A DNA stretch of 64,000 bases from a bacterium (GTDB taxonomy: Bacteria; UBA8248; JACPRG01; G963555815), in assembly GCA_965261595.1 (NCBI GenBank), contig CBDHDG010000006.1, positions 96,001-160,000 on the forward strand, written 5' to 3'. Shown piece after piece: positions 924-59,674 of this stretch (position 1 is the stretch's first letter; each line of letters begins with the position of its first letter). Both the position numbers and the translations under genes were made by a program. Below the pieces are notes generated by a model. It was not told the DNA's origin, searched no databases, and saw only the letters and a program-made list of their open reading frames with translations.

Positions 924-1188
924 TTTCCTCACCCTCCCTGAAAGCAAGAACCTGACTTCTTGACTGCGGGAAGATCCACCGTGCGCCGCCCGGACCGCCC
1001 ACGCCGAAGAAACTTCAATCGGTCCCGCGTTCTCCCCGCCATTGCGCCAAGCGGACCGTTCTCGGGCGGCCGCCGCAAATCGGGTGCTTGTGTTTTTCAA
1101 GGTAACAATACCGTAGCGTAGCAAAAATACAGGAGGTTGTGCAGCAACCCAACACAATTTTTATTCCCGGCAAAGGACGCCTGAAGTT

Positions 1189-3474
1189 TCATGCCCCTTC
1201 TCCAGACCGGGCATGGATCCCCCGCCACAGCTTGTCCGGCGTGACGGGCAGGTCCGTCATCCACACCCCCGCGGCATCGTGAATGGCCGAGACGATGGCC
1301 GGGCCTCCATCGACGGTGACCATCTCCCCGATCCCCTTCACCCCCCAGGGGCCCAGCGGGTCGCCCGCCTCGATGAAAATCCCCTCCACAGGGACGAAAT
1401 CCAGGGTGGTCGGCACCTTGTACTCGATGAGGTTGGGGTTGATCACCTGACCCTCTTGGCAGGCGATCTCCTCCATGAGGGTGAAACCCTGGGCCTGGGC
1501 GAATCCTCCCTCCACCTGCGCCTGCGCCCCGTTCGGGCTGACCACCCGCCCGATGTCCGAGGCGGAGACCACCCGCAGGATGCGGACCTCTCCCGTCTCG
1601 GGATCCACCTCCACCTCGACGGCCTTGGCCCCGAAGGCGAACGCACTCGAGAAATTCCCCCGCCCCGTCTTCTTGTCGGCCAGCTCGCTGGGCGCGTCGT
1701 AATGAGCCTGAGCCCACATGGCCTGGCCGTCCTTGCGGTAGCGGTTGGCCTTGACCACGTCGGAGAGCGACAAAGCCCGCTCGGGGGCTCCCCGCACGAA
1801 GACCTTTTCCCCGGAAACCTCCAGGTCGGACGGATCGGCCTCCAGCCGCCCGGCGGCCGTCTCGATCACCTGATCGCGCACCTTCGCGGCCGCCCGCCGG
1901 ACGGCCTCTCCTCCGATCGCCGTGTTCCGGCTGGCCCGCGCCCCCCACCCCATCGGGATGACGTCGGTGTCTCCGAAGACGACCATGATCTTCTCCATCG
2001 GGACGCCCAGGACCTCGGCGGCCATCTGGGCCAGGACTGTGTTGGAGCCGTTTCCGATCTCGCACACGGACGTGGCCAGATGGATGGAGCCGTCGTCGTT
2101 CAAGGTGATGGCCGCCCCGGCGAAGTCGGCGTCAATGCCCGGGGAGAGCCGGACGCCGACGAAGTGGACGCCGCACGCCACCCCGACGCCCCGGTTCGGC
2201 CGGCTCTTCTTATAATTCTCGTCCCAGCCGATCCGCCGGGCCACCTCGGAGATGCACTCCGAGAGGGCGCACGACCCGAAACGCGCCCCGGAGGCGGCCT
2301 CATCGCCCACGCGGACGGCGTTCTTCAGGCGCAGCTCGACCGGGTTCATCCCCAGGCGGTCGGCGATCATGTTGAGCTGCGTCTCGCAGGCGAAGGTGAT
2401 CTGCGGGTTGCCCAGTCCCCGCATGGCCCCCCCGAAGGGGTTGTTGGTGTAGACCACATAGCCGTCGTACCGGTAATTGGGGAACCGGTAGAGGGTCCCT
2501 CCCAGGGCGCCGGCCACATTGCACACCACCGGGCCGTAGTCGCAATAGCCGCCGTTGTCCATGACCACGCGGCAATCCCGGGCGGTGATGACGCCTTCGG
2601 CGTCCAGGGCGGTCTTGACGTGGACGATGAAGGGGTGCCGGAAGGTGGAATAGGCGGTCTCCTCCTCGCGGGTGTGCTCGATCTTCACCGGCCGGCCGGA
2701 CTTTTTCGCCAGCTCGATGGCGCAGAAATCGATGCAGAACTTGCCCGTCGCCTTGCTGCCGAATCCCCCGCCGACGTTGTTCGTGACAATGCGGATCTGG
2801 CTCTCGGGCACCTTGAGGATCTTGGCCATGTTCGTCCGGGAGTAAGAGGGGGCCTGGGTGGAATAGTAGAAGGTCAGCCGCCCGGTCGGCTCCACGTGGG
2901 CCACGCAGACATGGGGCTCCATGCACAGGTGGGCCTGCCGCGCGGTCTCGAAATCGTCCTCGAACACGTGGGCGGCCCGGCGGAACGCCCCGTCCACGTC
3001 GCCGGCGTCGTATTGGATGTGCGCCGCGATGTTGCCCTCTTTGTCGTCGTGAATCAGGGTCCGGCCCGGCTCCATCGCCTCTTCGGGATGGAAGACGGCG
3101 GGCAATTCCTCGTAGTCCACCTCTATCCGCGACAAGGCCTCATCGGCCGCGTCGAGGTCCGCCGCAGCCACGGCGGCCACCGGGTCCCCGATGTGGCGGA
3201 CCTTCTCGGCGGCAAGGGGGATCTGGTCATAATGGGACACGCCGAATTTGTAAGGGACCTCGGCGCCGATCAGGACGGCCTTGACGCCCCTGACCTTTTC
3301 GGCCTCGTCGGTCCGGATGCCTCGGATCCGGGCGTGCGGGAGAGCGCTCCGAAGCAGACGCCCGTGGAGCATCCCCGGGAGGTTGACGTCCGCCGTGTAG
3401 CGGGCCTCGCCGATCGCCTTGACGTGGGCGTCCACGCGGACGACGTTCTTCCCGACATACGCCAGTTCACTCAT
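1189..3474 (-). CDS. Xanthine dehydrogenase family molybdopterin-binding large subunit (HcrA/CoxL-like)
   Basis: Motifs LRSALPHARI, GGGFGSK, AMRGLGNPQ, AQVEGG and GPWGVKGIGE; 761 aa. Confidence 0.92.
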   Translation of the reverse strand: MSELAYVGKNVVRVDAHVKAIGEARYTADVNLPGMLHGRLLRSALPHARIRGIRTDEAEKVRGVKAVLIGAEVPYKFGVSHYDQIPLAAEKVRHIGDPVAAVAAADLDAADEALSRIEVDYEELPAVFHPEEAMEPGRTLIHDDKEGNIAAHIQYDAGDVDGAFRRAAHVFEDDFETARQAHLCMEPHVCVAHVEPTGRLTFYYSTQAPSYSRTNMAKILKVPESQIRIVTNNVGGGFGSKATGKFCIDFCAIELAKKSGRPVKIEHTREEETAYSTFRHPFIVHVKTALDAEGVITARDCRVVMDNGGYCDYGPVVCNVAGALGGTLYRFPNYRYDGYVVYTNNPFGGAMRGLGNPQITFACETQLNMIADRLGMNPVELRLKNAVRVGDEAASGARFGSCALSECISEVARRIGWDENYKKSRPNRGVGVACGVHFVGVRLSPGIDADFAGAAITLNDDGSIHLATSVCEIGNGSNTVLAQMAAEVLGVPMEKIMVVFGDTDVIPMGWGARASRNTAIGGEAVRRAAAKVRDQVIETAAGRLEADPSDLEVSGEKVFVRGAPERALSLSDVVKANRYRKDGQAMWAQAHYDAPSELADKKTGRGNFSSAFAFGAKAVEVEVDPETGEVRILRVVSASDIGRVVSPNGAQAQVEGGFAQAQGFTLMEEIACQEGQVINPNLIEYKVPTTLDFVPVEGIFIEAGDPLGPWGVKGIGEMVTVDGGPAIVSAIHDAAGVWMTDLPVTPDKLWRGIHARSGEGA

Positions 3475-6277: not shown

Positions 6278-7759
6278 TCAGCCTTTGACCTCCGCAATGG
6301 AACAGATGGTTTCTCGTCCCCGGGACTTGGCCCACTCGAGGGCCCGGAGCCCCTGGGCGATGAGTCTTCCCTCGGCGTCCCCGTCCTGGGGAAACACAGC
6401 CAGCCCAAAGTGCACCGAGAGCCGGAACTCGATGGATCCGGCCCGGAGATAGGAGTTTTCCAGCGTGTCCTGAAGCCGTCCGGCCGTCTCTCGGGCCGCA
6501 TCGAGATCTTTGCCGACCAGGGCCATCACAAACCGGCGACCGAGACACCGCGCCAGCAGGTCCGGCTCATCCAGAGACCGGCGGTAGAAATCAGCCAGCT
6601 CGCGCAGGAGTGAGTCGCCCGCCTCGCGGCCCCGGTCCGCGTAGACTTCCTGAACCTCCTCGGAGTCGGCGATCAGGATGGACACCGGGCGCAGGGTGTC
6701 CGACGCCAGGGCGAGGGCGTCGGTGAGACGGGCGGTGAAGGCCGGATAGGCCGGCAACCCGGTCACATCGTCCAAGGCCCCCAGACCCTCCCGGCGCGCC
6801 CGCATCCGGGCGGCGGCCAGCGCCCCCGAGGCCAGGCCTTGGAGCAGCTCCGCCGCGGCCAGCTCGCGTTCGTCAAAACCTCCGGCCTCGGCCCGCGCGA
6901 ACGCCAGCAGGCCGAAGACCTCCCTCCCCCCCCCTCCCTCCCCCCCCCCCGTGCTGAGCGGAACACCGAGAAAGGCGCCCAACGGCCGGCGGGCCTCGGC
7001 GGGGTGGAACAGGTGGGTCTCCCGCAGCTCGTCCTTGATGGTCGGGAGATGAAACGTCTCTCCGTGCGTCAGCACCCAGCCCGCGAGACTGCTCTCCATG
7101 GACACCGACAGGCCGATGGGCGTGTCGGCGCCGTGCGTCACGCACCGGACGACGCGAAACGCCTTCTCCCCCGGCGCGCGCCAGACGAGCGCCGCCGTCT
7201 CGCACTTCAGCAACCGTTTCGGGATGTTGCAGGCCGCGTCGAGGACCGCGTCGGCGTCGCCGGCGGCCGTGATGGGCGCCGCGTAATCGCGAAGGGCTTC
7301 CAGGGTGACGAAGTCCCGGCCGATCCGCCGGTAGACGTCGCTCTTTTCGAGCATCCGCGTCACCTGATCGGCGAAACCGATGAGGAGTTTTTGGACCTTG
7401 GGGGTGAAGACATACTGCCGCTTGCTGTCGATGAAGAGGACGCCGGTCCCGCCGGGCGTGGCCACCGGGACGGCCAGGAAGGATTTGATGTCCTCCTCGG
7501 CGCGGTACAGCCCGAGGGCCTTGAGGTCATGTTTGAACTCGGTGGAGTGGAGCGGATCGCCGCGCTCGGCCACCCAGCCGATGAGGCCCTGGCCGACCTC
7601 GATCTCCCGGTCCTTCAGGACATGGTCGCTCAGGCTGTGGCAGACGCGAAGCCGCAAAGGCCCGTCCGACTCCCGGGGAACGAACAGGGCGGCCGTATAG
7701 GCGTCGGTGACGTTGCTCAACAGACCGATCAGGCTCTGGAGATCTTCTTCGAGTTTCAT
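6278..7759 (-). CDS. GAF-GAF protein with a degenerate C-terminal GGDEF domain
   Basis: GAF motifs GQGLIGWVAE/SFLAVPV and SLAGWVL/AFLGVPL; DDVTGLP then ARCLGRRF in place of RxGGDEF. Start taken at MKLEEDL. Confidence 0.8.
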   Translation of the reverse strand: MKLEEDLQSLIGLLSNVTDAYTAALFVPRESDGPLRLRVCHSLSDHVLKDREIEVGQGLIGWVAERGDPLHSTEFKHDLKALGLYRAEEDIKSFLAVPVATPGGTGVLFIDSKRQYVFTPKVQKLLIGFADQVTRMLEKSDVYRRIGRDFVTLEALRDYAAPITAAGDADAVLDAACNIPKRLLKCETAALVWRAPGEKAFRVVRCVTHGADTPIGLSVSMESSLAGWVLTHGETFHLPTIKDELRETHLFHPAEARRPLGAFLGVPLSTGGGEGGGGREVFGLLAFARAEAGGFDERELAAAELLQGLASGALAAARMRARREGLGALDDVTGLPAYPAFTARLTDALALASDTLRPVSILIADSEEVQEVYADRGREAGDSLLRELADFYRRSLDEPDLLARCLGRRFVMALVGKDLDAARETAGRLQDTLENSYLRAGSIEFRLSVHFGLAVFPQDGDAEGRLIAQGLRALEWAKSRGRETICSIAEVKG

Positions 7760-8013
7760 CGAGGCAGGGGAAAAAAGCCGTCGGGAAAAATCATCACCCC
7801 CTGACGGTACCACACCCGGGGGGGCGTCCGCAACGTGATTTTCCGGATGTGAAATCCCGGTCTTCATGATCCGGATCAGGGTTCTCACCGATTGCTGGGC
7901 AGTCGCCTGGATTTCTCACCAACCATCCGACGGGCCGGGTTCGTTTAACGCCAAGGCGATCCGCAGATTGGAAAAGGCCAAAGAGAAAGACACACTTCAA
8001 TCGATCCGCAGAC

Positions 8014-8039
8014 GCCGTCCCCGCGCAGGCGGGGATTCC
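8014..8039. repeat. REP-like palindrome, degenerate copy of the 16997 element
   Basis: GTCCCCGCGCAGGCGGGGATTCC resembles GTCATTCCCGCGCAGGCGGGAATCCAG. Confidence 0.6.
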
Positions 8040-8247
8040 GCAGATTACCCAGATTTGGAAAAGGGCAAAGACAGAGACACAAGACGGGCATTCGGCCATA
8101 AAAGTCGGGGTTCTGGTTTGACTGTTTGTGAGAAACAGGGATTGGCATTTGGCCTCACCGGGCTTTTAAGGCAAAATTCCCAGGAAGGGGGAGGCATTTA
8201 CACGGATAGTTTCGACCGTGACGCACGCCCCCGGGAGAGGGTTCACG

Positions 8248-11211
8248 ATGCCGCGTGAAGAGGCGGATGGCCCAGGACGGCTGAAGGACCTGCTGGCGGA
8301 GATCGACCCCGACGTTCTCCGGGAAGTCATGCCCTTCACCGGGGGGGTTGTGACGATGATGTTCACCGACATCGTGGACTCCACGCCGATCAAGGCTGAG
8401 ATGGGTGACCAACCGTTTCGCGAGAACGTCCTGAATCCGCATAACACCCTCATCCGGGAATGTGTTGGTCACCACAACGGCCAGGAGCTCAAGACCATTG
8501 GCGACGCCTTCTTCGTCGGCTTCGCCCTTCCCGAGAATGGCGTGGCCTGCACCACTGAGATCCAGAAGAATCTAACCAATTCTCCAATCCAAGCGGGCGC
8601 GGCCGCGCTCCGGGTCCGGATCGGCCTTCACACCGGAACGCCCGAAGTCTACCGCGATCCCGTCTCGAAACTCATCGACCTTTCCGGGACGGACGTGGAC
8701 AGGGCGTCGAGGGTCGTGGCTTTGGCGGGTGGAGGACAGATCCTCATCTCCGATGAGACCCATGCCCTGGCGAAATCGAAAGAGGTCCACGATTGGGGAT
8801 TCTGGGAGCTGAAGGGCCTGGGGCGGCATCGGATTTTCGAGGTCCTGTGGGAGGGCAAAACACCCGAGCGGCCTTCCGGCCGTCCGTGGCTTAAGGCCGG
8901 GCGGTTCCCCACGCGGTTCGTCGGCCGCGAGGCCGAGATCGCCGAGGTCATGGACGCCGTGGAGAGCGAACGGCTCGTCACCCTCACGGGGATGGGGGGA
9001 ATCGGAAAAACGCGGCTTGCGGACGAGGTCGCGGCGCGGATGGGGCAGGGATTCGAGGACGGCGTCTTTTTCGTCGATTTGGCGGATATAGAAGATTCGG
9101 AAGCGGCGGTGGTCTCGGAGATCATTTCCCGAATCGGGATCGATCCGGCGGGGTTCCCGGACGAGGCGGCGGCGGTTCGGGAGACCCTTCGGAACCATCG
9201 CGCGCTCCTGGTCCTGGACAACTTCGAGGCCGTCATGTCGGCCGCGCCGTTCATCGGGAGGCTGCTCAAGGAGTGCCCGGGGCTTCGGTTCCTCGTGACC
9301 TCCCAGCGTCCACTCGGTCTGGACGGAGAGCAGCGAATCCCCGTGCGGCCGATGGACGTTGCGCCGTCAGAATCCTCCACCGATGCCGATTCATTGGGCC
9401 GCATGGACGGATTCAAGCTTTTCCGCGACCGCGCGCGGCTGAATGACCGCAAATGGGAAGTGAGCGACGCCGATGCGGCCGTCGTCGCCGAAATCCTGGA
9501 ATCGACCGACGGCATCCCCCTCTCCATCGAGCTCGCCGCCGCGAGGGTCGGGAAGGAACCGCTGAACGCGATCAGAGAGGGTCTCAAGGCGAGGCGTATC
9601 GAGTTCCTCAAGCGGGCCGGAGACACGGCTGACGAGAAGCGCCACGCGGGCATCCGGGCGTGCGTCGACTGGTCGTTCAACCTCTTGCCGCTGAAAGAGC
9701 GCACCCTCTTCCCGAAGCTCTCCGTCTTCGTCGGAGGGTTCTTCGCCGACGGCGCCACCGGGGTCTGCGGGGAGAAGAACGCCCCCGCGCTCCTCGATTC
9801 CCTCCGTGAAAGATCCCTTCTCGTGTGGGAGGAATCGCTGGGGAAGGCCCGGTACCGGATGCTCCCCACCGTCCGGGAGTACGCCGCCGAGAGGCTTGGC
9901 GATAAGGCGGAAACAGTCCGGCAACGCCATGCTGAACACTTTCTGAACGTCCTTGACCGTGCCAACGTCCAGATTTACGGAAAAGAGCAGATGACCGGGA
10001 TCAACCGGATCTCCGCCGACCTGGAGAACATCCGCGGCGGGATGGACGCGGCGGTTCGGAACGGCGATCATCTGGCGGTCGTGAGGCACTCCCAGGCATT
10101 CGGTGAATACTTTCAGATGAAGAGTCTTTTCGCGGAATCGTTACGGCGTGGACATCAAGGCCTCGCGTCGGCCGAGGCTTTGAAAGACGACGAGGTCATC
10201 GCGGGCTGCCGGAACAACCTGGGGAATGCCTACATGAGCCTTCCGGCGGGGGACCGGAGAGAGAACCTCAAGAACGCCATCGAATCCTACGAGGCCGCCC
10301 TGCGGGTCTATACCGAGGACGGGTTCCCGGTTCAGTGGGCGGGGACGCAGAACAACCTGGGTGAGGCCTATAGGAACCTTCCGACAGGCGACCGGGGGGA
10401 GAACCTCAAGAACGCCATCGGGTGCTACGAAGCCGCTCTGCGGGTCCACACCGAGGACGCGTTCCCGGTGGATTGGGCGATGACGCGGAACAACCTGGGC
10501 ACCGCATACTCGAACCTTCCGAGAGGGGACCGGGGGGAGAACATCAAGAAGGCCATCGAATCCTACGAGGACGCCCTGCGAGTCAGGACCAAGGACGAGT
10601 TCCCGGTTCAGTGGGCGATGACGCTGAACAACCTGGGCATTGCCTACAGGAACCTTCCGGCGGGCGACCGGGGGGAGAACGTCAAGAACGCCATCGGGTG
10701 CTACGAGGCCGCCCTGCGGGTCTATACCGAGGACGGGTTCCCGGTTCAGTGGGCGGGGACGCAGAACAACCTGGGCGAGGCCTACCGGAACCTTCCGGCG
10801 GGGGACCGGGGGGAGAACCTCAAGAACGCCATCGAATTCTACGAGGCCGCCCTGCGGGTCTATACCGAGGACGGGTTCCCGGTTCAGTGGGCGGGGACGC
10901 AGAACAACCTGGGCGAGGCCTACCGGAACCTTCCGACGGGGAACCGGGGGAAGAACCTCAAGAACGCCATCGGATGCTTCGAGGCCACCTTGCGGATCTA
11001 CACCAAGAACGGGTTCCCGGTTCAATGGGCGATGACGCAAAACAACCTGGGCATTGCGTACAGGGACCTTGAGACGGGGGACCGGGGGGAGAACGTCAAG
11101 AAGGCCATCGGGTGCTTCGAGTCCGCCATCCGGGGATACGAGGCGGCGGGGCTTGCGGAAAAGGCGGAAGAGGTCAGGCGGGAGTTGGATTCGTTGAAGG
11201 GGGAAGGGTGA
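8248..11211 (+). CDS. Class III adenylate/guanylate cyclase - STAND (NB-ARC-like) ATPase - TPR protein
   Basis: MFTDIVDST/KTIGDAF/VRIGLHTG (cyclase); GMGGIGKTRLA Walker A, LLVLDNFE Walker B, GIPLSIELAA; C-terminal TPRs. Confidence 0.92.
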   Translation: MPREEADGPGRLKDLLAEIDPDVLREVMPFTGGVVTMMFTDIVDSTPIKAEMGDQPFRENVLNPHNTLIRECVGHHNGQELKTIGDAFFVGFALPENGVACTTEIQKNLTNSPIQAGAAALRVRIGLHTGTPEVYRDPVSKLIDLSGTDVDRASRVVALAGGGQILISDETHALAKSKEVHDWGFWELKGLGRHRIFEVLWEGKTPERPSGRPWLKAGRFPTRFVGREAEIAEVMDAVESERLVTLTGMGGIGKTRLADEVAARMGQGFEDGVFFVDLADIEDSEAAVVSEIISRIGIDPAGFPDEAAAVRETLRNHRALLVLDNFEAVMSAAPFIGRLLKECPGLRFLVTSQRPLGLDGEQRIPVRPMDVAPSESSTDADSLGRMDGFKLFRDRARLNDRKWEVSDADAAVVAEILESTDGIPLSIELAAARVGKEPLNAIREGLKARRIEFLKRAGDTADEKRHAGIRACVDWSFNLLPLKERTLFPKLSVFVGGFFADGATGVCGEKNAPALLDSLRERSLLVWEESLGKARYRMLPTVREYAAERLGDKAETVRQRHAEHFLNVLDRANVQIYGKEQMTGINRISADLENIRGGMDAAVRNGDHLAVVRHSQAFGEYFQMKSLFAESLRRGHQGLASAEALKDDEVIAGCRNNLGNAYMSLPAGDRRENLKNAIESYEAALRVYTEDGFPVQWAGTQNNLGEAYRNLPTGDRGENLKNAIGCYEAALRVHTEDAFPVDWAMTRNNLGTAYSNLPRGDRGENIKKAIESYEDALRVRTKDEFPVQWAMTLNNLGIAYRNLPAGDRGENVKNAIGCYEAALRVYTEDGFPVQWAGTQNNLGEAYRNLPAGDRGENLKNAIEFYEAALRVYTEDGFPVQWAGTQNNLGEAYRNLPTGNRGKNLKNAIGCFEATLRIYTKNGFPVQWAMTQNNLGIAYRDLETGDRGENVKKAIGCFESAIRGYEAAGLAEKAEEVRRELDSLKGEG
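10213..11130 (+). repeat. Intragenic tandem array of 138-bp units (46-aa TPR-like repeats): 6 full and 1 partial
   Basis: AACAACCTGGG recurs at 10213, 10351, 10489, 10627, 10765, 10903 and 11041. Confidence 0.95.
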
Positions 11212-14969: not shown

Positions 14970-15990
14970 TTAGGCGCCGGGAACGAATTCATTCGTGTAG
15001 TAGGTCTTGATCGGAAGGGGCGTCTTGAGCACGCCCGTTTTGAGCAAGATCTCCTCGGTGCTTCTCCAATCCGTTTCGCTCATCCACCCGAGGGGTTTCC
15101 CCCACGTGCTCTTCGATTTCAGCAGCTCCAGCGTCCCCACGAACTGCAGGTTCACCGACGCTCTGCGGTGATCGTTGCCGGGGGAGTGCTTGAGGGCGAT
15201 ATCAACCGCCTCATCCACGTTGCACGGCCGATTCCTTCCAGGCCTTTTGCGTGGCGCGCAGGAACCCGCGGACCAATTTACCGCGTTTCAGGGTGTCCTT
15301 GTGGGTGAGGATCCCCTGGCCCATGGGCTTCACACCCCAATCCGTGAAGGGGAGAAAATGGACGGGCTTGCCCTTTCCCTGCTTGGCGCGGACAACGAAG
15401 TCGTTGGGGGAACCGGTGGTGATGCTCATGATGGTGTCCACATTGCCGTTTGCAAACGTCGTGTTCCGCGTTCGGCCGCCGACGATCCGCATCTTCACGC
15501 TGTCCACCGGGACATTGTTGATCTTGAGCCAAAGCTTCAGGATCGACAGGTGGACCCCCACGGACGCCAGGGTCTTGCCCATGAGATCCTGGGGTTTGCG
15601 GACCGGGTTATCCTCGAAGGAAATGATGGCCTAGGCGCTTTTGGCCTGAACCGCGTAGATGGCCTTGACGGGCACCTTTTTCGCGACCGCCTTGGCCAGG
15701 GCCAGGTAGTCGGCGAAACCGAAGGTGTTGCGATTCGCCGCGAGGGCGTTGATCGTCTTGCCCGATCCGGCGCCTTCCTTGATATCGAGATCGATCCCCT
15801 CCTTGGCGTAATACCCCTTCTCCTTGGCCCAGTAGAACGGGGTGTGATAGCCGGTGAGCTTCCACTCCAAACGGAGGGAGGCCTTTTCGGCGGCGGCCTG
15901 TCCGATCCAACCGAAGACCAAGACCCCCGCCAGCAGGGCGAAGGCGCAGATCCATCCCCGTTGCTTACGACTTGTGGCCTGGAATCGCAT
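14970..15990 (-). pseudogene. NMT1/THI5-like ABC substrate-binding protein with an in-frame TAG (15631-15633) and a frameshift (~15220)
   Basis: Three collinear fragments: signal peptide + LRLEWKLTGYHTPFY...; KPQDLMGKTLA...; VDEAVDIALK...YYTNEFVP. Confidence 0.8.
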
Positions 15991-19976: not shown

Positions 19977-21089
19977 ATGTTCAAATTCTGGCCCGAGAAC
20001 AACGACTGGTCCTGGCATCTGCTGAGGACGATCGCCGAAGCCAATTACGGCGGGGGGGAGGCCCAGGAATGCCTGCGGACGGCGGCGCGGATCCGGGTGG
20101 GCGACCCTGAAAGCTGGCACGTCGAGTGGAAGGCCCTGGCGGACCGGGTGGCGGGCCTGGGGGAGGAAGCCCTGGCCAAAGGCCGGACGGTCACCGGCCG
20201 GGACCACCTCCTGCGGGCGTGCAACTATTACCGCTGGGCGGAGTTCTTCCTCCCGGCGGACGACCCGAGGCGGCTCCCCACGTACCGGCGGTGCATCGAC
20301 GCCTTCCGGCAGGCCGGCCCGCATCTCGACCCCCCCGCCGAGCGGGTCGAGATCCCATATGAGGGCACGACCCTCCAGGGATACTTCTACGCCGCCAATG
20401 GCGCGTCCGGGGAAAATCCGTCGCCGGGGGCGATCTACGTGGCCGGGGCGGACGTCTTGAAGGAGGAGCTCTACTTCCTGGCGGGCAAATCGCTCATCGA
20501 GCGGGGGTTCTCCCTCCTCGTCATGGACGGACCGGGGCAGGGGGAGACCCTCCGGTTCCAGAAGATCGTCAGCCGGCCCGATTACGAGGTCCCCGTGGGC
20601 GCGGCGCTGGACTTCCTGGCCGCCCGGCCCGAAGTGGACGCGGACCGCCTGGGCCTCGTCGGCCGGAGCTTCGGCGGATATTACGCCACGCGCGCGGCGG
20701 CCTTTGAGAAGCGCGTCAAGGGGCTGGTGGTCTTCGGGGCGCTGTTCGCGGCGGTGGAGCTTTTTGACGACTACCCAACCATCCGCCCCCAGCTCCAGTG
20801 GCTGACGGGGAGCGCGTCGGCCGAGGAGACCCGGGAGCGGCTGAAAGAGTTCTCTCTCGCGCCGGTCATCGGCAAGGTGGGCTGTCCCGTTCTGGTCATC
20901 CACGGCGAGGGGGACCACCTGACCCCCGCCTCCCACGCCCGCCGGACGTTCGACGGCCTGACCGTCGAGGACAAGGAATTAATCCTGTACGGCAAGGACG
21001 AGCCGGGGTCCGTCCACTGCCAGTACAACAGCTTTCCGACGACGATTCCGTACTTCTGCGACTGGCTGCTGGAGCGAGTGAACGCATAG
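19977..21089 (+). CDS. Alpha/beta hydrolase (2,6-dihydroxypseudooxynicotine hydrolase/FrsA-like)
   Basis: RACNYYRWAEF, DGPGQGE, GRSFGGYYA nucleophile elbow, HGEGD, HCQ. Confidence 0.85.
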   Translation: MFKFWPENNDWSWHLLRTIAEANYGGGEAQECLRTAARIRVGDPESWHVEWKALADRVAGLGEEALAKGRTVTGRDHLLRACNYYRWAEFFLPADDPRRLPTYRRCIDAFRQAGPHLDPPAERVEIPYEGTTLQGYFYAANGASGENPSPGAIYVAGADVLKEELYFLAGKSLIERGFSLLVMDGPGQGETLRFQKIVSRPDYEVPVGAALDFLAARPEVDADRLGLVGRSFGGYYATRAAAFEKRVKGLVVFGALFAAVELFDDYPTIRPQLQWLTGSASAEETRERLKEFSLAPVIGKVGCPVLVIHGEGDHLTPASHARRTFDGLTVEDKELILYGKDEPGSVHCQYNSFPTTIPYFCDWLLERVNA

Positions 21090-21099
21090 GGCCGCTCAC

Positions 21100-21148
21100 A
21101 AAAAAAGAAGGGGGCGGCGTTGCGCCGTCCCCTCTTCTTTCTCTTTTT
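21100..21148. terminator. Bidirectional Rho-independent terminator
   Basis: A7-GAAGGGGGCGGCG-TTG-CGCCGTCCCCTCTTC-TTTCTCTTTTT, with U-rich tails on both strands. Confidence 0.85.
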
Positions 21149-21425
21149 GCGCCCCGTTTTTTTGCGCGGGGCCATCCGGGCTTAGGTCCGGATATGTGTG
21201 CCGCCCGGGTCCTTCCCCGCCAACTCAGCGGCGGCCCTTTGAGGGCGGGGTCCGAACGGAAGTCTCAACGGCGTGAATCCTATTCGGCCCTCACCTCCTT
21301 CCAATTCCGCGCATCACCTGAAACCGGACTTCCTCCGATTCCCCCCGGGGATCTCCCGGGACGTCCTACGCGTCCCCCAGGGCCTTCCCTGGCGCCTCAC
21401 TCTTGGTTTCTTTCCCTTTGCACTG
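21100..21425 (-). ncRNA. Candidate CsrB/Rsm-like GGA-repeat sRNA
   Basis: 18 GGA on the minus strand versus 5 on the plus strand in 21175-21429, several in hairpin loops; ends in a U7 terminator; no credible ORF. Confidence 0.5.
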
Positions 21426-21583
21426 ATCCAATATGAAATGAATCCCCGCCGAGAACGATGATCCGGATCATGAAAGCGCGGATCTTGTCGTGTCTTGGGT
21501 GGCGAAACTGAGACGCAAGCCTATGTTTTAAGATATGGCCGCGATCACCGGGGAAGGGGAGTAGGGGGAAGGAGGGGGGGGGG

Positions 21584-22861
21584 ATGGAAGCGCGCCAAAT
21601 CCTTCACGTCGATCTCGACTCCTTTTACGCCTCGGTCGAGCGCCGGGAAAACCCGGACCTCGCCGGGAAGCCCGTCATCGTCGGCGCGGACCCCAAGGGC
21701 GGAAAAGGCAGAGGCGTCATCGCCGCCTGCTCCTACGAGGCCCGCGCATTCGGCCTGCACTCGGCCATGCCCATCGGCCGGGCCTTCCGGCTGTGTCCCC
21801 ACGGGGTCTACCTCCCCGTCCGGATGGGTTACTACGCCGAGGTCTCGCGGGAGATCCGGAAGGTCTTCGCCGAGTACACCGAGCTCGTCGAGCCCATCAG
21901 CATCGACGAGGCCTTCCTGGACGTGACGGCCAGCCGGAGCCTGTTCGGCGACGCCCGGAAAATCGCCGTGACGATCAAAGACCGCGTCCGGGAAGGCCAG
22001 TCCCTCACCGCCTCGGTGGGGATCGCGACGAACAAGTTCATCGCCAAAATCGCCTCGGACCTGGACAAGCCCGACGGACTGGTCGAGGTCTCGCCGGGCG
22101 AGGAGCTGGACTTCCTCGCCCCCCTGCCCATCTCCAAGCTCTGGGGCGTCGGCCGGAAAACGGAGCCCAAGCTCCGCGCCCTGGGCGTCCAGACCATCGG
22201 CGAGCTGCGAAACCTTCCCCTCGATACGCTGAAGGCGGGGTTCGGCGCCGTCGGCGAGCACCTCCACGACCTGGCCCACGGCCGCGACGCCCGGGAGGTC
22301 ATCCCCGAGTCCGCGCCGAAGTCGGTCGGGAACGAGACCACGTATTCCGAGGACGTCTCGGACCCAGAGGTCCTGCGCAAGACCCTCCTCGCCCTGTCGG
22401 AGGAGGTGGCCTCCCGCCTGCGGGCCGACAGCTTCCGCGGACGGACGGTCACGCTCAAGTTCCGGTACGAGGACTTCTCGACGCACACCCGCTCGCACAC
22501 GCTGGCCGAGGCGACCGACCTGGACGCGGAGGTCTACGAGACGGCGGCGGCGCTGCTCGATGATTTCCTGCCGCTCAAGGGCCGGGAGGTGCGGCTGTTG
22601 GGCGTCTCGGTGTCGAACCTGGGGAGCGTCTCCGCCGCTTCCGCCCAGCTCTCGCTCTTCAGCCGGGCTTCGGGCGCGAAGACCCCAAGCCCCTCGCCCG
22701 AGGCGAGACGGCGGGCCGCCGAGGCCGTGGACCAACTGCGCGGAAAATTCGGCATGAAGGCCGTCACGCTCGGGACGCTCGCGGAGGGGGGGAGGAAACC
22801 CAGCGAAGATGAGGGCGCGGACGGCCCGGATGAGACCCCTGAGCGGGACGAGCGTGGCTGA
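21584..22861 (+). CDS. dinB: DNA polymerase IV
   Basis: HVDLDSFYASVE, CSYEARAFG, SIDEAFLD, AKIASDLDKPDG. Confidence 0.95.
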   Translation: MEARQILHVDLDSFYASVERRENPDLAGKPVIVGADPKGGKGRGVIAACSYEARAFGLHSAMPIGRAFRLCPHGVYLPVRMGYYAEVSREIRKVFAEYTELVEPISIDEAFLDVTASRSLFGDARKIAVTIKDRVREGQSLTASVGIATNKFIAKIASDLDKPDGLVEVSPGEELDFLAPLPISKLWGVGRKTEPKLRALGVQTIGELRNLPLDTLKAGFGAVGEHLHDLAHGRDAREVIPESAPKSVGNETTYSEDVSDPEVLRKTLLALSEEVASRLRADSFRGRTVTLKFRYEDFSTHTRSHTLAEATDLDAEVYETAAALLDDFLPLKGREVRLLGVSVSNLGSVSAASAQLSLFSRASGAKTPSPSPEARRRAAEAVDQLRGKFGMKAVTLGTLAEGGRKPSEDEGADGPDETPERDERG

Positions 22862-23467: not shown

Positions 23468-24247
23468 TCAATCCCATTTCCGGCCCGGCATGTGGTCGAA
23501 GATGCTCTTCGTCAGCCCGCCGTCGATGTCGAGCCGGGTCGCGGTGATGTAATCGGCCTCGTCCGAGAGCAGGAAGAGGATGCCGTGGGCGATGTCCTCC
23601 GGCTGGCCGACCCGCCCCCAGGGAGTGACGGCCTCGCGGCCCTTGCGGATCTCCGGGTCCTGAAGATAGGACGTCAACGGGGTTTCCGTGTGGCCGGGGC
23701 AGATGACGTTGACACGGATTTTCTTCCGCGCCCACTCCAGGGCGAAGTGCTGGGAGAGCATGATGATCCCCGCCTTCACCGTGCTGTAGGCCCCGGACAT
23801 GCCGTATGGCATGATCCCGGCGTTGGAGGAGAGGTTCACCATCGCGCCCGGACGCCCCTGGGCGATCATCCACCGGCCCGCCGCCTGGCACATGAGGAAC
23901 ATCCCCGTCAGGCCGATGTCCACGACGAGCTTCCAGCTCTCCAGCGAGAGGTCCGCCAGGGGGGCCGGGTCCATTTTGATGGCGCAGTTGACGAGACAGT
24001 CGAGCCCGCCGAACTCCGACGCCGCCCGGTCCACCGCCACCCGGCACGCCTCGGGACTCCTCACGTCCAGGTCCTGAAAGACGGCCTTCCCGGCCCCGAT
24101 CTTCAGGGCGAGCTCTTCCCCAAGGTCCCGATTGACGTCCCCGATGACGACGCGGCCGCCCTCCTCCGCAAACCGCTCGGCGGTCTTCGCGCCGATTCCG
24201 CGCGCGCCTCCGGCGATGAGGCACACCTTCCTTTCAAACCGGCTCAT
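23468..24247 (-). CDS. SDR oxidoreductase
   Basis: GGARGIG, YSTVK, IRVNVICPG, IDGG. Confidence 0.9.
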   Translation of the reverse strand: MSRFERKVCLIAGGARGIGAKTAERFAEEGGRVVIGDVNRDLGEELALKIGAGKAVFQDLDVRSPEACRVAVDRAASEFGGLDCLVNCAIKMDPAPLADLSLESWKLVVDIGLTGMFLMCQAAGRWMIAQGRPGAMVNLSSNAGIMPYGMSGAYSTVKAGIIMLSQHFALEWARKKIRVNVICPGHTETPLTSYLQDPEIRKGREAVTPWGRVGQPEDIAHGILFLLSDEADYITATRLDIDGGLTKSIFDHMPGRKWD

Positions 24248-24599
24248 GCCCTTTTCCCCCTTTCGCACCGCCCGATGGATCATCAATCGATTTCCCGCCC
24301 CAATTCCGGCCGGGGGTGTGGATCATCTTGCTCTCCACCTGTCCGCCGTCCACAGGCAGGTTCGCGGCGGTGACGTAGCCGGCCCGGTCGGAGAGGAGAA
24401 AGACGCAGGCCTCGGCGATCTCCCCGGGCGTCCCCACCCGGCCCATCGGGACTACCGCCGCGCGGCCCGCCGCGATCTCGGGATCGGCGAACATGGCTTC
24501 GGTCATGGGCGTGCGGACCTGGCCCGGCGAGACGGTGTTGGCGCGCCCGATGCCGCCGCCCCCTCCGGTAACGATGATCTTTTTCCCCTCGAGCATCAT
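24234..24599 (-). pseudogene. SDR remnant with a large in-frame internal deletion
   Basis: IIVTGGGGGIGR is joined directly to ANTVSPGQVRT; the NAG and YxxxK core is missing. Confidence 0.85.
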
Positions 24600-25027
24600 G
24601 ATATCGGTCCTTCCCTGAAACCATCCGCCCCGTCCATCAGGACACCAACCTGAATCTCTCACCAGCAGGGGATTCGGGCCTTCCTCTCATCATACCCATT
24701 CCCATGGCTGAACCACTCGACAAAAGCGGCAAGGATCCGGATTGGACAAGTAAACTCAAGTCTTTGTAAGTTTTTCTTTCTTAATATTTAATGAATTGGA
24801 GGGCCAACCCGCCTAAGTTGTTCAAATGCGCCTGAAATCAAGCGGTTCAGAAAGGAGCGGGTGAGTGCGGTTCGCAAGGGTGACGCGTCGCCGGGTTTTG
24901 TTTTCCATGGCCGGTATGGCTCCGGGGGTGTGGTCTTTGCGGCAGCGCGGCATGTCGGGTTTCCCTCGGCGCCGCACCCCGCTTCAGGCCCCTTGGAATC
25001 GGACTTCTCCCTCCTCCGGCTGGTCCA

Positions 25028-42292: not shown

Positions 42293-42847
42293 ATGACACC
42301 CAAATCGAGCATTCGTTTTTTATCGCTGGTCATCCTGGCGGCGGCGCTGACGGCGATATCCTCCGCTCCGCCCGCCCTCGGAGGGGACAAGAATCATTTT
42401 TCCGCCCTCCGCATGGTGCGGTTCGCCAAGCCGGTGTCCACGCCGGAGTTCCGCCTCAAGGACCTGGAAGGGAAAGAAGTGTCCTTTTCCAGGTTCGAGG
42501 GCAAGGTCATTCTCCTCAACTTCTGGACGACGTGGTGACCTCATTGCTTGCGGGAGCGGCCGGCTCTCGAAGCGCTTTACCGGAAGTACAAGGACAAGGG
42601 CCTGGAAGTGGTCGGGATCGCGATGGACAAACAGGGCAAAGCCATCGTGGCCCCCTACCTGAAACGGAACCCGGCGACGTTCAGCAACCTGCTCGATCCC
42701 GATTCGCGCGTCGCCCGGATGTTCTCCGTCCGCGGCACGCCCACGAACTTCCTGTTCAACCGGAAGGGTGAGGTCATCGGGGGCTCGGTCGGCTACCGGA
42801 ACTGGTCCAGTCAAGACGCCCACGTGCTGATCGAGAGTCTCTTGTAG
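42293..42847 (+). CDS. Exported TlpA/ResA-like thiol-disulfide oxidoreductase, selenoprotein (UxxC; Sec at codon 82)
   Basis: GKVILLNFWTTW-U-PHCLRERP: TGA 42536-42538 sits at the first Cys of WCxxC; the frame continues to GTPTNFLFNRKG. Confidence 0.9.
42546..42573 (+). promoter_or_regulatory. SECIS-like hairpin
   Basis: GCUU-(G)-CGGGAGC-GGCCG-GCUCUCG-AAGC, beginning after a 7-nt spacer 3' of the UGA; the loop starts with GG. Confidence 0.75.
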
Positions 42848-45654: not shown

Positions 45655-48550
45655 TCTCCTTTTTCTTCATTTCCATTTCGGCATGGGTCCGCGGGAACAG
45701 GCTCCCCGGACGGCGGAATCTTCCGGCGGCCCGGACGTCAACGCTCCGGCGTTCCGGCGGAGACGGGCAGGCGGATCCGGAAGCGCGTTTCGCCGGGCTT
45801 CGAGTCGATCTCAATCTCGCCGTGATGCGTCCCCCGGACGATTCGGTGGACGATCTGCAAACCCAGGCCGGTTCCCTTCCCCACGTCTTTGGTCGTGAAG
45901 AACGGCTCGAAGACCTTCGAGCGGATCTCTTCGGGAATTCCCGGGCCGTTGTCGACGATTTCCACCAGGACGGTGTCGGTCTCCTGTGAGGTTCGCAGTC
46001 TGATCTCGCCCCCCGGACCCGCGGCGTCGATGGCGTTGTCGATCAGGTTCGTCCACACCTGGTTCAGCTCCGGGCCGTTGGCCTCGACGGACCTCAGGCC
46101 CGGGTCGTACGCTCGAACGACTTCTATCTTGTGCTCCCTCAGCTTATGGCCGAGGAGGGTGAGGGTGTCGTCGAGCCCCTGATGCACGTCCATCGCCCCC
46201 TTGGAGGACTGATCCATCAACGAGTAGGACTTGACCGCGTTGACGAGGTCCGAGATGCGGCGAGTGGCGACCGTTGTCTCCCGAACCAGGGCGTCCATGA
46301 CGATGGAGCGCTCCAACCACGCGAAGGCGCTCGAATGGGATTCCTCGGGCAGACCGTTCGCCACGGCCTGCAATTGTTCGACCGAAAGGTCGGCGTGGGC
46401 CAAAGCGGGGCCAAGCCTCCAGGCATCCGGGACGCCCTGTCCTTCCAGCCAGCCGGCGATCTCCTCCTCCCGCGCGCTCTCCGCCAATGGGTCGGAGGAC
46501 CCGGGGGGATTTTGGTTTGTGGATGCCTGTTCGTGAACGGCCAGGAGCAGGTCCATCTGCTCTTGCGTCAGCGACAATCGCCCGAGCGCCATCGCGTGCG
46601 TCCGGGCGGCGGCCAGAACGTCCGAGATTTCCTGTGTGGCGCGCTGCGCCGCCGCGGCCGGGTTGTTCAGCTCGTGCGCCAACCCGGAGGAGATCTTGCC
46701 GATGGCGGCCAGTTTTTCTTGTTGCCGCAGCTTCTCCAACTCCCGCTCGGACCGTTTTCGCTCGGTGATGTCGCGAACGAAGTAAATCACGTGTGTCCGG
46801 CCATGAAGCTCGATGGGCGTCCCACTGACCTCAATATCGAGAATCACACTGTCTTTTCGGCTCGCCCGGGTCTCGAACGGCTTCTGCCACTTCTCCTCCC
46901 GGATGATCTGCGTCCTGCGCTGTGCGGCCCTGTCTTTGAAATCGGGCGGGGCGATGTCCTCCTGCCTCATTTCCAGCAATTCCTCCCGCCGGTAGCCGAG
47001 GAGGTTGCAAGCGCCCTGGTTGCAGTCGATGAACAGGCCGTCCTCCGCCGTTATGAAGATCGCGTCCCGCGCCCGCTCGAAGAGGGTGTGGTACCGCTCC
47101 TCGGACCTCCGCTGCGCTTCCTCGGCCCGCCGCCGCTCGGTGACGTCGCTCCCCACGCAAAGGACCTCGGTCAAACGGCCGTCCTCATCAAAAATCGGCT
47201 TGTTGTCCCAGATGATCCATACGCGCTCGCCGTTCCGCTTCATGTTTTCGTTTTCATTCCTGATGTAGCGGTCAGGATTTTGGAAGATGTCCCGGATCAT
47301 GGCCGTGAGGTCACGGTCGGCCGCGTCGGTTTCCGGCACGATGGCGCCCACGACGTGCCGGCCGAGGATCTCCTCCTGCGAGTAATCGAAAAACCTTTCC
47401 GCGAACTCGTTGAAAAACGTGATTTTGCCCTGGGTGTCCATCCTGAGGATGATGCTGTTCGCGTGCTCCACGAGCTCGCGGTATTTCACCTCGCTGGCCT
47501 GAAGCTTCTCTTCCGCCCGTTTTCGCTTGGAGATGTCCCGGATGATCCACAGGTGAAGAACATCTCTTCCCCCCGCTTCCAGACAGCCCGGGAAAGCTCC
47601 ATCGGGAATTCAGAGCCGTCTTTCCGCAAGCCGAACGACTCCAGTGTTTTCCCGGCGAGGCTGGATTCGCCCGTTTCTCGGACCCGGCTCATCCCTTTTT
47701 CATGCGCTTCCCGGAGGTTCTCCGGAATGAGGAGCGTTAAGGGTTGGCCGAGGACTTCCTCTTCCCGGCGGCCGAAGATTTTTTCCGCGCCGTGGTTCCA
47801 AAGAAATATCCGCCCGGTCTCGTCGGCGGACACGATGGCGTCGGTGGCGGATTCCGTGATGGATCGGAACCGTTCCTGGCTGGCCCGCAATTCCTCCTCC
47901 GCCCGTTTTTTCTCCGTAATGTCGCACAGAAAGTACATGACATGCCTCCGCCCCTCGATCTCGACGGGCGTCGCGCTGACCTCGATATCAATCGACGCGC
48001 CGTCTTTCCGGAGGTTCTTGGATTCGTAAGGGGGCATGCCTTCTTCGAGGATCTTTGACATTCGCAGAGAAACGGAATCCCTGAAATCCGGCCCGGTCAT
48101 GTCCTGAACCCGCCTTTGAAGCATCTCCTCACGGGTGTATCCCATCAGGTCGCAGGCGTGCCGGTTGCACTCGACGACGCGGCCCGTTTCATCGGCCACG
48201 TGGATGGCGAACCGGGCCTCCTCGAAAAACGTGCGGTATGTTTCCTCGGACTTCCGAACGGTCTCCGCGGCCGTCTTTTTCGAGCCAGTTCCCTCTCCCT
48301 CTTCGGCCCGGACGGGGGCGGCGAGGGCCTCCATCAATTTCGGGACCGTGCCCGGGCAGACGCCGAGCATCTCCCGGAAAGTTTCCGCGCTGAACCGCAA
48401 CAGGCGGGTAGGCCCGTTCGCACGCCCGAATCCGACAAAGGGATGGCCGGCCGCAAGAGCGACCAAGGTGCAAGCGGCCCCGGGCTCGTCGAATCGGGCG
48501 ACCGTGGACCGCCCCTGGGTTATTGGACACTCGGGTGAGGGTATTCGACC

Positions 48551-49459
48551 TCATGCGGCCTCCGCAACTTGAGCGAGTTTTTCCTGCCTTGCCTGGGCCG
48601 GCGTTCGGTAGCCGTAGCCCTCGAGAATCCAATGATGGTTGTACAGGTTTTTGAACTCAAGCAGCGCCCACCGCAGTTCCTCTACGGTGGCGAAAGAGCG
48701 CACCCACAGGAGATTCTCCTTCAAGATGCGGATAAACCACTCACAGTAGCCATTTCCCTCGGGCGCCCGCACGAAGCTGGGCGAACTGGTCATGCCCAGG
48801 TAGGCGATCTCCCGCTGAAAGTCATCGGACAGATAGGCGGGGCCGTGGTCGTGACGAACTTTAAGCCCCTCGGCGACGTCCGCCTCCAAGCCGGCGAAGC
48901 GCTCGGCGACCCCCTGCCGGATCGGCTCCAGGGCCTCGAAGCGGTTGCCGCTCTTGGCCGCATGGATCCCCACGCAGTCCACCGAGCAGTGATCCACCGC
49001 CACGAACACCGAGGCCACCCCCTCCTCGGTGGTCACCGTCGTCGTCATGTCCGTGCCCCACATTCGGTCGGGCCGCTCGGTGCGGATGGTCCCGTTGTGG
49101 GCCTTGGGACCTCGGGGTTTGCCCACCCGGTGGGGGGCCTGAAGCCCCGCCTCCCGCATCAGGCGACGCACCCGCTCCTTGCTGGTGCGGATGCCCGCGA
49201 AGCGCAGCCTCGCCCACACCTTGCGGTAGCCCTCGCCATGGAAGGGAGAGTCCTCCAGGACCTGCCGGATGTGGCCGAGGAGTTCCGCATCGGTGCACGG
49301 GCCCACAGGGCCGCGCTTATTGGGCGTGGGGCGTTCATGAACGGGGACCGCCTCTCGCCGCCGTTGCGCGTAGACCGTGGAGCGCGCCAAGCCCCAAAGG
49401 GCGCACACCCGCTTCAGGCCGTAGGCTCTGCCCGTGGAGGTGAAGCGGGCCTGACTCAT
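48551..49459 (-). CDS. IS3-family OrfB DDE transposase
   Basis: GYRKVWARL, WGTDMT, RHDHG, PEGNGYCEWF (rve integrase core); ATGA overlap with orfA. Confidence 0.92.
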   Translation of the reverse strand: MSQARFTSTGRAYGLKRVCALWGLARSTVYAQRRREAVPVHERPTPNKRGPVGPCTDAELLGHIRQVLEDSPFHGEGYRKVWARLRFAGIRTSKERVRRLMREAGLQAPHRVGKPRGPKAHNGTIRTERPDRMWGTDMTTTVTTEEGVASVFVAVDHCSVDCVGIHAAKSGNRFEALEPIRQGVAERFAGLEADVAEGLKVRHDHGPAYLSDDFQREIAYLGMTSSPSFVRAPEGNGYCEWFIRILKENLLWVRSFATVEELRWALLEFKNLYNHHWILEGYGYRTPAQARQEKLAQVAEAA

Positions 49460-49842
49460 CGCCTCCACCTCCTGCCGGCTAAAGGGCGGCCGGCCTCCAG
49501 GCGGTCGATCTTCTCCCGCAGGACCTCGCCCTCCATCGTGAGTTCGCCCACCTTGGCCTTGAGCCGGGCGTTCTCCTCGGCCCGCTCATCCGCCGGGCGG
49601 GCTTTGAGCGCCGCCTCGCCCCCGCGAAGGAACGCCTCGCGCCAGGCGGAAAGCCGAGCCGCTGTCGTGCCCAACTCGCGGCAGAGCGTCTCCAGGCTCT
49701 CGCCCCGCAAAAGACGCAGGACCGCCTCCCGCTTGCGCTGGCAGGAGAACCGACCCCGCTCACTGCGATGCCCTGGGGCCTTGGCTCCGTTCGCCCTGCG
49801 GGCGCCCTCCGCCAAAGCCCCCTCTTGCTTTTGTTCGTTCAT
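49456..49842 (-). CDS. IS3-family OrfA (HTH + coiled coil)
   Basis: RKREAVLRLLRGESLETLCRELG...LKAKVGELTME. Confidence 0.88.
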   Translation of the reverse strand: MNEQKQEGALAEGARRANGAKAPGHRSERGRFSCQRKREAVLRLLRGESLETLCRELGTTAARLSAWREAFLRGGEAALKARPADERAEENARLKAKVGELTMEGEVLREKIDRLEAGRPLAGRRWRR

Positions 49843-50167
49843 CGCGACACCCCTTTCTCCATGAATCATGGATCAATCGAGTGTCCAACAAAACCCTAGA
49901 GCGGGGGAACCGGGCCTTCCTGACCGGCGGACCTCCGGGTCACATCGACCGCGCCTTCAATCAGGATGTCGAAGAATTCGGCCGGTGCGCCTTCGCGGAA
50001 GACAATCTCCCCGGGCCGGAAGGAAACCTCGGCGCACCGCTCCGAGAGCCACAAGATCTGATCGGGACTCAGGTCGGCGAAGAGCGGAACGCTTTTCAGT
50101 AAACCTTTCAAATCCATGGCGTCACCCGAGGGGCTTCAAGCGTAAGGGCGAAACCCTTTCCGAGGTT

Positions 50168-55766: not shown

Positions 55767-55963
55767 GTCGTTCTCACTGAGCACAAGTTGCCGGCAAAAG
55801 TTCCGGAATTCCGAGATCCATCGAACGGATCGGTTGGGGGCGAAATGCCGGGCCTCCCCCTACCCGATCGGCCCGTATTTCTCACAACGATTCTGTGACA
55901 GGCCCGTGTATGATCGGCCATTGGATTGCCGGCCGCCCCCTCCTCAAGGACAGGACGCACCCC

Positions 55964-59365: not shown

Positions 59366-59476
59366 CTCCGCTGTCTCCGTTTTTCAACCGGAATCCGAAA
59401 CACCCGATCCGGAACCTTCGATCAGGCCGAAATCCAGGGTCATCCAATCCCTGTTCCACCCGACGACCCCGCACCC

Positions 59477-59674
59477 TCATCCCGTCTTCGGCACATACTT
59501 CCCCGTTTCCACTTCCCGTCCGAGGCGGTCGTCCTCGCGAAGCTTTCCCCAGGCCCGCAGGAGGTCCCGGTACTTGACGTCCGCGAACCGGATGAGAATG
59601 TCCTCGAAATGCGCCGGGCCCTCCCCCAGAAAGGCCAGGATTCGATCCGCCAGCTCTTGCGTCGATCCGCTCAT
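59477..59674 (-). CDS. Small hypothetical protein (65 aa, possibly winged-helix-like)
   Basis: GGAGGA RBS before the ATG; protein-like composition. Confidence 0.6.
   Translation of the reverse strand: MSGSTQELADRILAFLGEGPAHFEDILIRFADVKYRDLLRAWGKLREDDRLGREVETGKYVPKTG

Follow-up and report, generated by a model that had tools for sequence, protein, structure and literature searches.

The 494-bp spacer between an alpha/beta hydrolase gene and the Pol IV/DinB gene (dinB) in a 64,000-nt stretch of bacterial DNA (GenBank assembly GCA_965261595.1, contig CBDHDG010000006.1, positions 96,001 to 160,000; hereafter the window) holds, with a probability of roughly one half, an independent gene on its minus strand. 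This gene would occupy positions 21471-21100 and encode a structured non-coding RNA of about 325 nt, belonging to a family that is absent from Rfam and limited to a few uncultured relatives. The RNA is most likely previously undescribed, although no literature search was aimed at this particular RNA. Comparison with related genomes yields a conserved unit with sharp edges, a fold shared by its copies, a preference for the minus strand and no coding signal, alongside which we infer a promoter, its regulator, transcription itself and a mode of action. A preliminary description of the spacer had proposed a small RNA of ~320 nt that titrates CsrA. The conserved and folded minus-strand unit of that proposal stands, at ~325 nt, while the titration of CsrA is not supported: the GGA motifs are not preferentially exposed and most of their positions are not conserved.

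The window has a G+C content of 64.5%, and Pfam bears out both flanking genes, which lie on the plus strand; no coding-like minus-strand gene feeds into the spacer, as the preliminary description had noted. Relatives were obtained by a DinB-query scan of genome contigs, which returned 44 loci, four of them close: L001, L003, L004 and L002, with DinB identities of 94%, 78%, 77% and 72%, respectively. L003 is Nitrospinota according to its depositor label and L004 comes from a complete chromosome. With blastn, the spacer matches L001 at 83% identity over about 468-635 nt and L003 at 66% over 382 nt, in an orientation that diverges from dinB. No homology was found by blastn in L004, where the hydrolase-dinB spacer measures ~98 bp, or in L002, where it measures ~250 bp and is AT-rich and unrelated. 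Inspection beside dinB in relatives, a check suggested at the outset, places the whole unit, from palindrome to terminator and divergent from dinB, in two of the four close relatives.

The edges of the homology in L001 and L003 coincide with the palindrome at the start and fall just past the terminator at the end. In L001, 145 unrelated nucleotides (L001 5388-5532) separate the hydrolase stop codon from the terminator, and in L003 the far-side neighbour of the unit is a different gene, of 134 aa. L003 also contains a tandem partial second copy between the first copy and dinB (1142-1500, minus strand), formed by the 3' domain and its own terminator, which scores 119.6 bits with R1, a covariance model of that domain. 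The 5' part of this tandem copy is unrelated and lacks a TGAT-N4-ATCA box; the copy could represent a sibling RNA whose 5' region differs. No listed plus-strand open reading frame (ORF) of at least 50 aa ends within 80 nt upstream of its terminator. The gap in L001, the different neighbour in L003 and the terminator of the tandem copy together indicate that the terminator belongs to the minus-strand unit. The unit has boundaries of its own and, judging from these arrangements, can be duplicated and lost. R1 gives 120-142 bits on the four copies, and its search of the window, L001, L002, L003 and L004 returned nothing beyond these training copies; blastn found no further copies in the other 39 loci, and plasmid and phage collections held no match to the unit.

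At the distance of L003, the RNA retains 66.6% identity over 329 aligned positions with 17 gap columns, against 57.5% (142/247) at the 4-fold sites of dinB. A neutral spacer would be unlikely to stay alignable over such a distance. The fold was derived with RNAalifold from three full copies (alignment A3), the partial tandem copy of L003 serving as an extra for the 3' domain. The consensus fold comprises 86 pairs, with standard pairs in 95.2% of 252 cells. Eight pairs have changed on both sides, compared with 3.0±1.3 in shuffles (0/500 reach eight) and with 0-2 in slid controls, in which the partners were shifted by 1-3 columns; the fold of the window copy lies at z = -3.56 relative to its shuffles. 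The same pairs read on the plus strand are standard in 82.5% of cells, the minus-strand fold containing 33 G-U cells, and in all three copies it is the minus strand that reaches the lower minimum free energy. Both the G-U pairs and the energy thus favour the minus strand as the RNA strand, and the three-sequence covariation is supportive of a shared fold, short of conclusive.

An intrinsic terminator closes the 3' end of the RNA in all four copies. In the window, the minus-strand hairpin is followed by the U7-containing UUCUUUUUUU, as had been described earlier. The structure is bidirectional, with -28.8 kcal/mol for the minus-strand hairpin and -26.1 for the plus-strand one, and the minus-strand hairpin is the more stable of the two in 4/4 copies; a compensatory change at stem positions is present in L003. 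A consensus terminator scan flagged the plus-strand reading alone (hairpin 21109-21133), the minus-strand reading being passed over because its stem contains one A-C mismatch.

The opposite end of the unit is marked by ATGATCCGGATCAT, which is an exact 14-bp palindrome, as the preliminary description had it, and which belongs to the RNA unit and not to dinB: in L003 it lies ~830 nt from dinB and directly before the RNA. A dimeric, CRP/FNR-like protein probably binds it to regulate the promoter of the RNA. Compared with the FNR consensus TTGATnnnnATCAA (PMC3688515), the palindrome agrees at 8/10 positions and its core is exact in the window and L003, the family of the binding protein being putative. 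The pattern TGATN4ATCA has 3 occurrences in the window, where 0.47 would be expected. L003 keeps the core (TGATCCAGATCA) with the spacer changed to CCAG, and L001 has one core mismatch (TGATCTGGCTCA). The -10-like hexamer lies in the most AT-rich patch of the unit, and its gap to the palindrome is 22 nt in the window and L001 (CATATT in both) and 21 nt in L003 (TATATT). If this hexamer is the -10 element, the centre of the site would be at -41.5 or -40.5 and transcription would start at ~21423. For comparison, that source places 19/23 FNR-activated E. coli promoters in class II position (-41.5) and describes activation by FNR of the small RNA gene fnrS from a site at -42.5 (PMC3688515).

Table 1. 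Features of the proposed RNA gene and its surroundings in the window.
Feature	Position	Strand	Remarks
Alpha/beta hydrolase gene	19977-21089	+	Pfam
Pol IV/DinB gene (dinB)	21584-22861	+	Pfam
Palindrome ATGATCCGGATCAT	21458-21471		core TGAT-N4-ATCA
-10-like hexamer CATATT (putative)	21430-21435	-	22 nt downstream of palindrome
5' domain	21325-21423	-	least conserved third; hairpins CCAGGG-AAGG-CCCUGG (21392-21377) and GGGACG-CGUAGGA-CGUCCC
Central domain	21241-21328	-	helix 4 (21328-21300) and long imperfect hairpin (21297-21241)
3' domain	21149-21235	-	helix 7/8 (21235-21200); common to all four copies, including tandem L003
3' domain hairpins	21193-21174; 21170-21153	-	UCCGG with loop ACNUAAGC; GCCCCG with A-rich loop
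Purine-rich linker, terminator stem-loop and U tail	21148-21133; 21132-21110; 21109-21100	-	hairpin doubles as plus-strand terminator of the hydrolase gene
ORF of 40 aa	21304-21182	-	TTG start; only notable minus-strand ORF

The three domains of the RNA (Table 1) differ in their conservation. In the 5' domain, 55/69 aligned positions match L001 (80%) and 29 nt are missing there, and the central domain shows no indel among the three copies. Within helices 4-6, 4 of the 32 pairs carry a compensatory change, and the long central hairpin buries a Shine-Dalgarno-like GGAGGUGAGGG against CCCCGCCCUC. A mechanism consistent with these features can be proposed. A dimeric regulator of the CRP/FNR kind would bind the TGAT-N4-ATCA palindrome, whose centre, ~41.5 nt upstream of the start, would make it overlap the -35 region of a promoter otherwise limited to the -10-like CATATT. 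Transcription would proceed from ~21423, away from dinB, and end at the intrinsic terminator at 21132-21100, and the product would fold into about ten helices. Such an RNA would most likely be a trans-acting regulator that works through its small number of conserved, exposed segments, namely the ACNUAAGC loop, a GGGGAAG bulge and a 5' CAAAGRGAAAG stretch.

The richness in GGA that first drew attention to the spacer was reproduced exactly on recounting: 21175-21429 contains 18 on its minus strand against 5 on its plus strand. Shuffles that preserve dinucleotides yield 12.3±2.2, with 20/2000 reaching at least 18, and mononucleotide shuffles give 8.9±2.4, with 0/2000 doing so; A.GGA occurs 4 times, against 2.8±1.5 in shuffles. 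Across all 255-nt windows of the stretch the median is 7 and the 99th percentile 14, and a second GGA-rich place, with 19 GGA per 255 nt, is found at 59280-59768. The enrichment is real and modest in size, and it arises in large part because the minus strand of the spacer is purine-skewed, being the most purine-skewed 330 nt anywhere in the window. Where the strand is purine-rich and the genome GC-rich, counting GGA is not enough to recognise a CsrA sponge; what decides is the exposure of the motif together with its conservation. As a side observation, the other stretch of the window with at least 18 GGA per 255 nt, the only one besides the spacer, contains a 65-codon ORF (59477-59674, minus strand) whose ATG is preceded by a strong ribosome-binding site, GGGGAGGAAAT, and which is followed by an SDR gene.

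The reading put forward in the preliminary description, a CsrB/Rsm-type sponge whose many GGA motifs titrate CsrA, has to be judged against what is known of such RNAs. One source (PMC7652899) attributes to CsrB some 18 copies of the GGA element, situated in hairpin loops or elsewhere in single-stranded regions, gives CAGGA(U/A/C)G-like binding motifs for CsrB/Rsm RNAs and reports that affinity falls when GGA is base-paired; it describes the Csr small RNAs for Gammaproteobacteria, with dependence on a two-component system of the BarA-UvrY/GacS-GacA type, and has FliW acting in other lineages. The RNA resembles CsrB/CsrC and RsmX/Y/Z in length (~325 nt, against 369 nt for CsrB), in its many hairpins, in its intrinsic terminator and palindromic upstream site, and in GGA density, which is close to that of CsrB (19 in 336 nt, or 5.7 per 100, against 22 in 369 nt, or 6.0 per 100) and above dinucleotide shuffles. 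The upstream site itself is different, having an FNR/CRP-like core, unlike the site of CsrB/Rsm RNAs, which we take to be a UvrY/GacA-type box.

Exposure was measured from folds in the same way for the RNA and for E. coli CsrB and CsrC as positive controls, with 5000 random position sets in each case. In CsrB, 16/22 GGA are fully unpaired in the minimum-energy fold and their mean unpaired probability is 0.80, against 0.44 for all positions (random sets as high, 0/5000); the corresponding values for CsrC are 7/14, 0.61 against 0.41, and 34/5000. In the window copy, the GGA are slightly more exposed than average, with 6/19 unpaired and 0.49 against 0.37 (280/5000), and the exposure is non-significant in L001 (3/16; 0.41 against 0.37; 1580/5000) and in L003 (1/15; 0.34 against 0.37; 3129/5000). 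The GGA are therefore largely buried in stems, which the preliminary description itself had named as grounds for abandoning its reading, and its impression that many lie in hairpin loops is contradicted by the minimum-energy fold, which puts 2/19 in hairpin loops and leaves 6/19 fully unpaired. Conservation tells the same story: GGA is kept in all three copies at only 8/26 aligned positions, one of the eight being unpaired in the consensus fold and five mostly paired, and several conserved GGAs simply make up one side of a UCCGGA-type stem. Of the GGA hairpins, the best two sit in or against the 29-nt stretch that is missing from L001, the nearest relative. The extended motif is likewise scarce, with 5 AGGA in the RNA against 14 in CsrB.

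The Rfam comparison points in the same direction. No family was found for the spacer RNA in the whole window at gathering score, and at E<=10 over 20900-21700 the matches were weak and terminator-driven. The match to PrrB_RsmZ, which might speak for the sponge, reaches 20 bits (E = 0.027) against a gathering score of 44, and that to CsrC reaches 10.6 against 61, both being restricted to the terminator end. A csrA gene was absent from the 64-kb window by Pfam, and tblastn of E. coli CsrA against the window and the 44 loci gave nothing below E = 2.6; nor was a BarA-UvrY/GacS-GacA-type pair identified in the Pfam scan of window proteins. About 30% of bacterial genomes carry csrA (PMC13443453), which counts in favour of the sponge, and the passages returned by a literature search pairing CsrA with Nitrospinota names contained no link between them. 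With its GGAs neither concentrated in loops nor conserved, few AGGA or A.GGA, no significant Rfam match and a different lineage, the RNA is not built like the multi-loop GGA sponges of the CsrB/Rsm type, and a CsrA-titrating sponge is improbable. A related proposal is that the RNA acts as a decoy for a factor recognising Shine-Dalgarno-like or GGA sequences, CsrA or another RNA-binding regulator, with partly structured motifs in place of loop-displayed ones and induction by a CRP/FNR-type sensor. The chance of this is slim; if true, it would be the first RNA antagonist of such a kind outside Gammaproteobacteria.

Returning to the independent RNA gene, several observations weigh against it. Covariation statistics from only three full copies and one partial copy are weak, and in the 3' domain, with four copies, 2 pairs covary, a number matched by 208/500 shuffles, most pairs being invariant. 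The consensus promoter scan gave no sigma-70 promoter at this place, and there is no CRP/FNR-type regulator among the 57 window proteins scanned, which include only a cNMP-binding histidine kinase (50168-51556). Boxes with one mismatch are not enriched in intergenic DNA (7/38, in a window that is 13.2% intergenic). A box regulon sought by mismatch search was accordingly set aside, the three-mismatch matches to the 14-mer also falling mostly in coding sequence. The purine linker base-pairs with the U tail and the terminator is bidirectional, so that a chaperone-binding 3' module cannot be argued; that candidate, drawn from the linker, was dropped. Furthermore, the unit is missing from L004 and L002, both of which keep the hydrolase-dinB adjacency, and hence it is dispensable. 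At short range there is no excess conservation, the RNA body being 88.6% identical to L001 (272/307) and the 4-fold sites of dinB 93.1% (242/260), although third positions here are 90% G+C and themselves biased. Finally, the L001 copy has three lesions, namely the mismatch in the box core, the 29-nt deletion and an interrupted U tract. If functional, the RNA is dispensable and in the course of being lost in some lines.

Much of this could be accommodated by drifting intergenic DNA that produces no functional RNA, contains a bidirectional terminator, can be aligned solely because of common ancestry and owes its apparent fold to GC-rich self-complementary runs. The RNA body that falls below synonymous sites against L001, the deletion and the weakened box and U tract in that relative, the absence of the stretch from two of four close relatives, the three sequences behind the covariation and the lack of any further copy in the 64-kb window or the relatives' flanks all fit such drift. 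They are opposed by an alignment that extends over 382 nt at a distance where 4-fold sites are 57.5% identical, by unit boundaries that coincide with the palindrome and the terminator, by the retention of the unit beside a different far-side neighbour and its tandem duplication in L003, by the eight compensatory pairs against 0-2 in slid controls and by the strand asymmetry of the G-U pairs. Drift without function is on balance unlikely, with an appreciable chance nonetheless. Function on the plus strand, as a 3' untranslated region of the hydrolase or a long dinB leader, is very improbable: 21109-21133 does form a good plus-strand terminator hairpin, the only one flagged by the scan, and the segment next to dinB (21472-21583) matches L001 at 151/160 (94.4%), but a hydrolase transcript would stop at that terminator, short of the conserved body. 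In addition, more of the pairs are standard on the minus strand (95.2% against 82.5%), which also has the lower energy in 3/3 copies; the L003 unit follows a different plus-strand gene, with ~830 nt and another terminator between it and dinB; and both genes occur without the unit in L004 and L002.

A small-protein mRNA or dual-function RNA would have to rely on the 40-aa ORF. This frame is open in the window and L001 (40 codons) and in L003 (32 codons), has no indel across it and shows some synonymous changes, two of them Arg-to-Arg multi-base. It begins, however, with a TTG lacking an upstream ribosome-binding site, and the strong GGAGG that exists lies inside the frame, with the next start codon 25 nt beyond. 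No homologue was found in a set of 5.8 billion proteins (lengths of 22-70 aa searched), and 0/9 stop-to-stop frames of the spacer matched Pfam at E<=1, on which ground a pseudogene remnant was also rejected. In the alignment of the window with L003, the differences counted by hand number 5 at first, 7 at second and 9 at third codon positions, with 20/32 residues identical at 78% base identity; the seemingly synonymous changes are the partners of one another in compensatory pairs of the long hairpin (e.g., columns 159 and 188), and L003 has its stop at another position. The 29-nt deletion in L001 disrupts a 62-aa ORF on the plus strand. No conserved small ORF explains the region, and a protein-coding role for the transcript is scarcely credible.

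Among known systems, chaperone sponges of the CrcZ/CrcY type from Pseudomonas are long structured small RNAs with purine- or A-rich exposed stretches. The RNA proposed here is like them in its A7 loop (21170-21153) and its purine linker (21148-21133), and differs in having few A-rich repeats, a linker paired with the U tail and no Rfam match. FnrS is about 120 nt long, whereas the RNA here would be ~325 nt and purine-rich. Both end in an intrinsic terminator and both have a palindrome of the TGAT-N4-ATCA type at a class II position (-42.5 for fnrS, PMC3688515; -41.5 or -40.5 by our estimate for the present unit), although sequence and Rfam similarity are absent, the start site and regulator are putative here, and the outer positions read ATGAT...ATCAT instead of the TTGAT...ATCAA of the FNR consensus. 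The RNA would work most like an activator-controlled small RNA such as FnrS, resembling CsrB in length and GGA density only, and is a member of neither family. If transcribed, it would be the first regulatory RNA candidate for these uncultured high-GC bacteria, which are known only from metagenome bins.

The box of the RNA has a counterpart elsewhere in the window. The identical 12-mer TGATCCGGATCA is present at 7867-7878, where 22/24 bases match when the flanks are included, giving a 24-nt box of the form TTCA-TGATCCGGATCA-NN-GTTCTC. The local alignment score is 38, whereas the best of 200 shuffles reaches 29. The occurrence of the box in front of a c-di-GMP cyclase gene region is a hint that a small regulon exists. 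It lies in the 330-bp spacer between a GAF-GGDEF gene (6278-7888, minus strand) and an adenylate-cyclase/NACHT/TPR gene (8218-11211, plus strand), the longest ORF call of the former overlapping it, and a -10-like GAAAAT occurs 22 nt from it on the minus strand. Within 7860-8217, the spacer also contains a purine-rich direct repeat of 27 nt (7968-7994 and 8055-8081, 89% identical). A related RNA at 7880-8217 was considered and rejected, the similarity ending at the 24-nt box region.

On the dinB side, a reading of the palindrome as a LexA box or dinB operator was discarded, given its distance of ~830 nt from dinB in L003 and the presence of dinB without the palindrome in L004 and L002. The 94.4% match of 21472-21583, from box to dinB, to L001 exceeds that of the RNA body, and the promoter or operator of dinB probably lies in this segment; in L004, dinB is preceded by a plain TTGACT...TATATT instead. 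Between the ribosome-binding site GGAAGGAG and the dinB start codon, and directly adjoining the latter, is a run of 10 G (21574-21583; L001 5991-6000), which might be prone to slippage or might just belong to the leader. L001 additionally has a 19-nt insertion between box and dinB, together with a masked N run just inside dinB.

Elsewhere in the window, several genes appear split or truncated, including an NMT1/THI5-like binding protein in two ORFs (15211-15990), a C-terminal SDR fragment beside a full SDR gene (24234-24662), a short AhpC/TSA-like piece (42293-42847) and the large subunit of a molybdopterin oxidoreductase in two ORFs (53420-55784), all of which might reflect pseudogenes or frameshifts introduced in assembly. 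At 48551-49869, an IS3-like transposase pair (HTH_Tnp_1 and rve) adjoins ORFs for a PAS sensor and a histidine kinase at 45738-48466.

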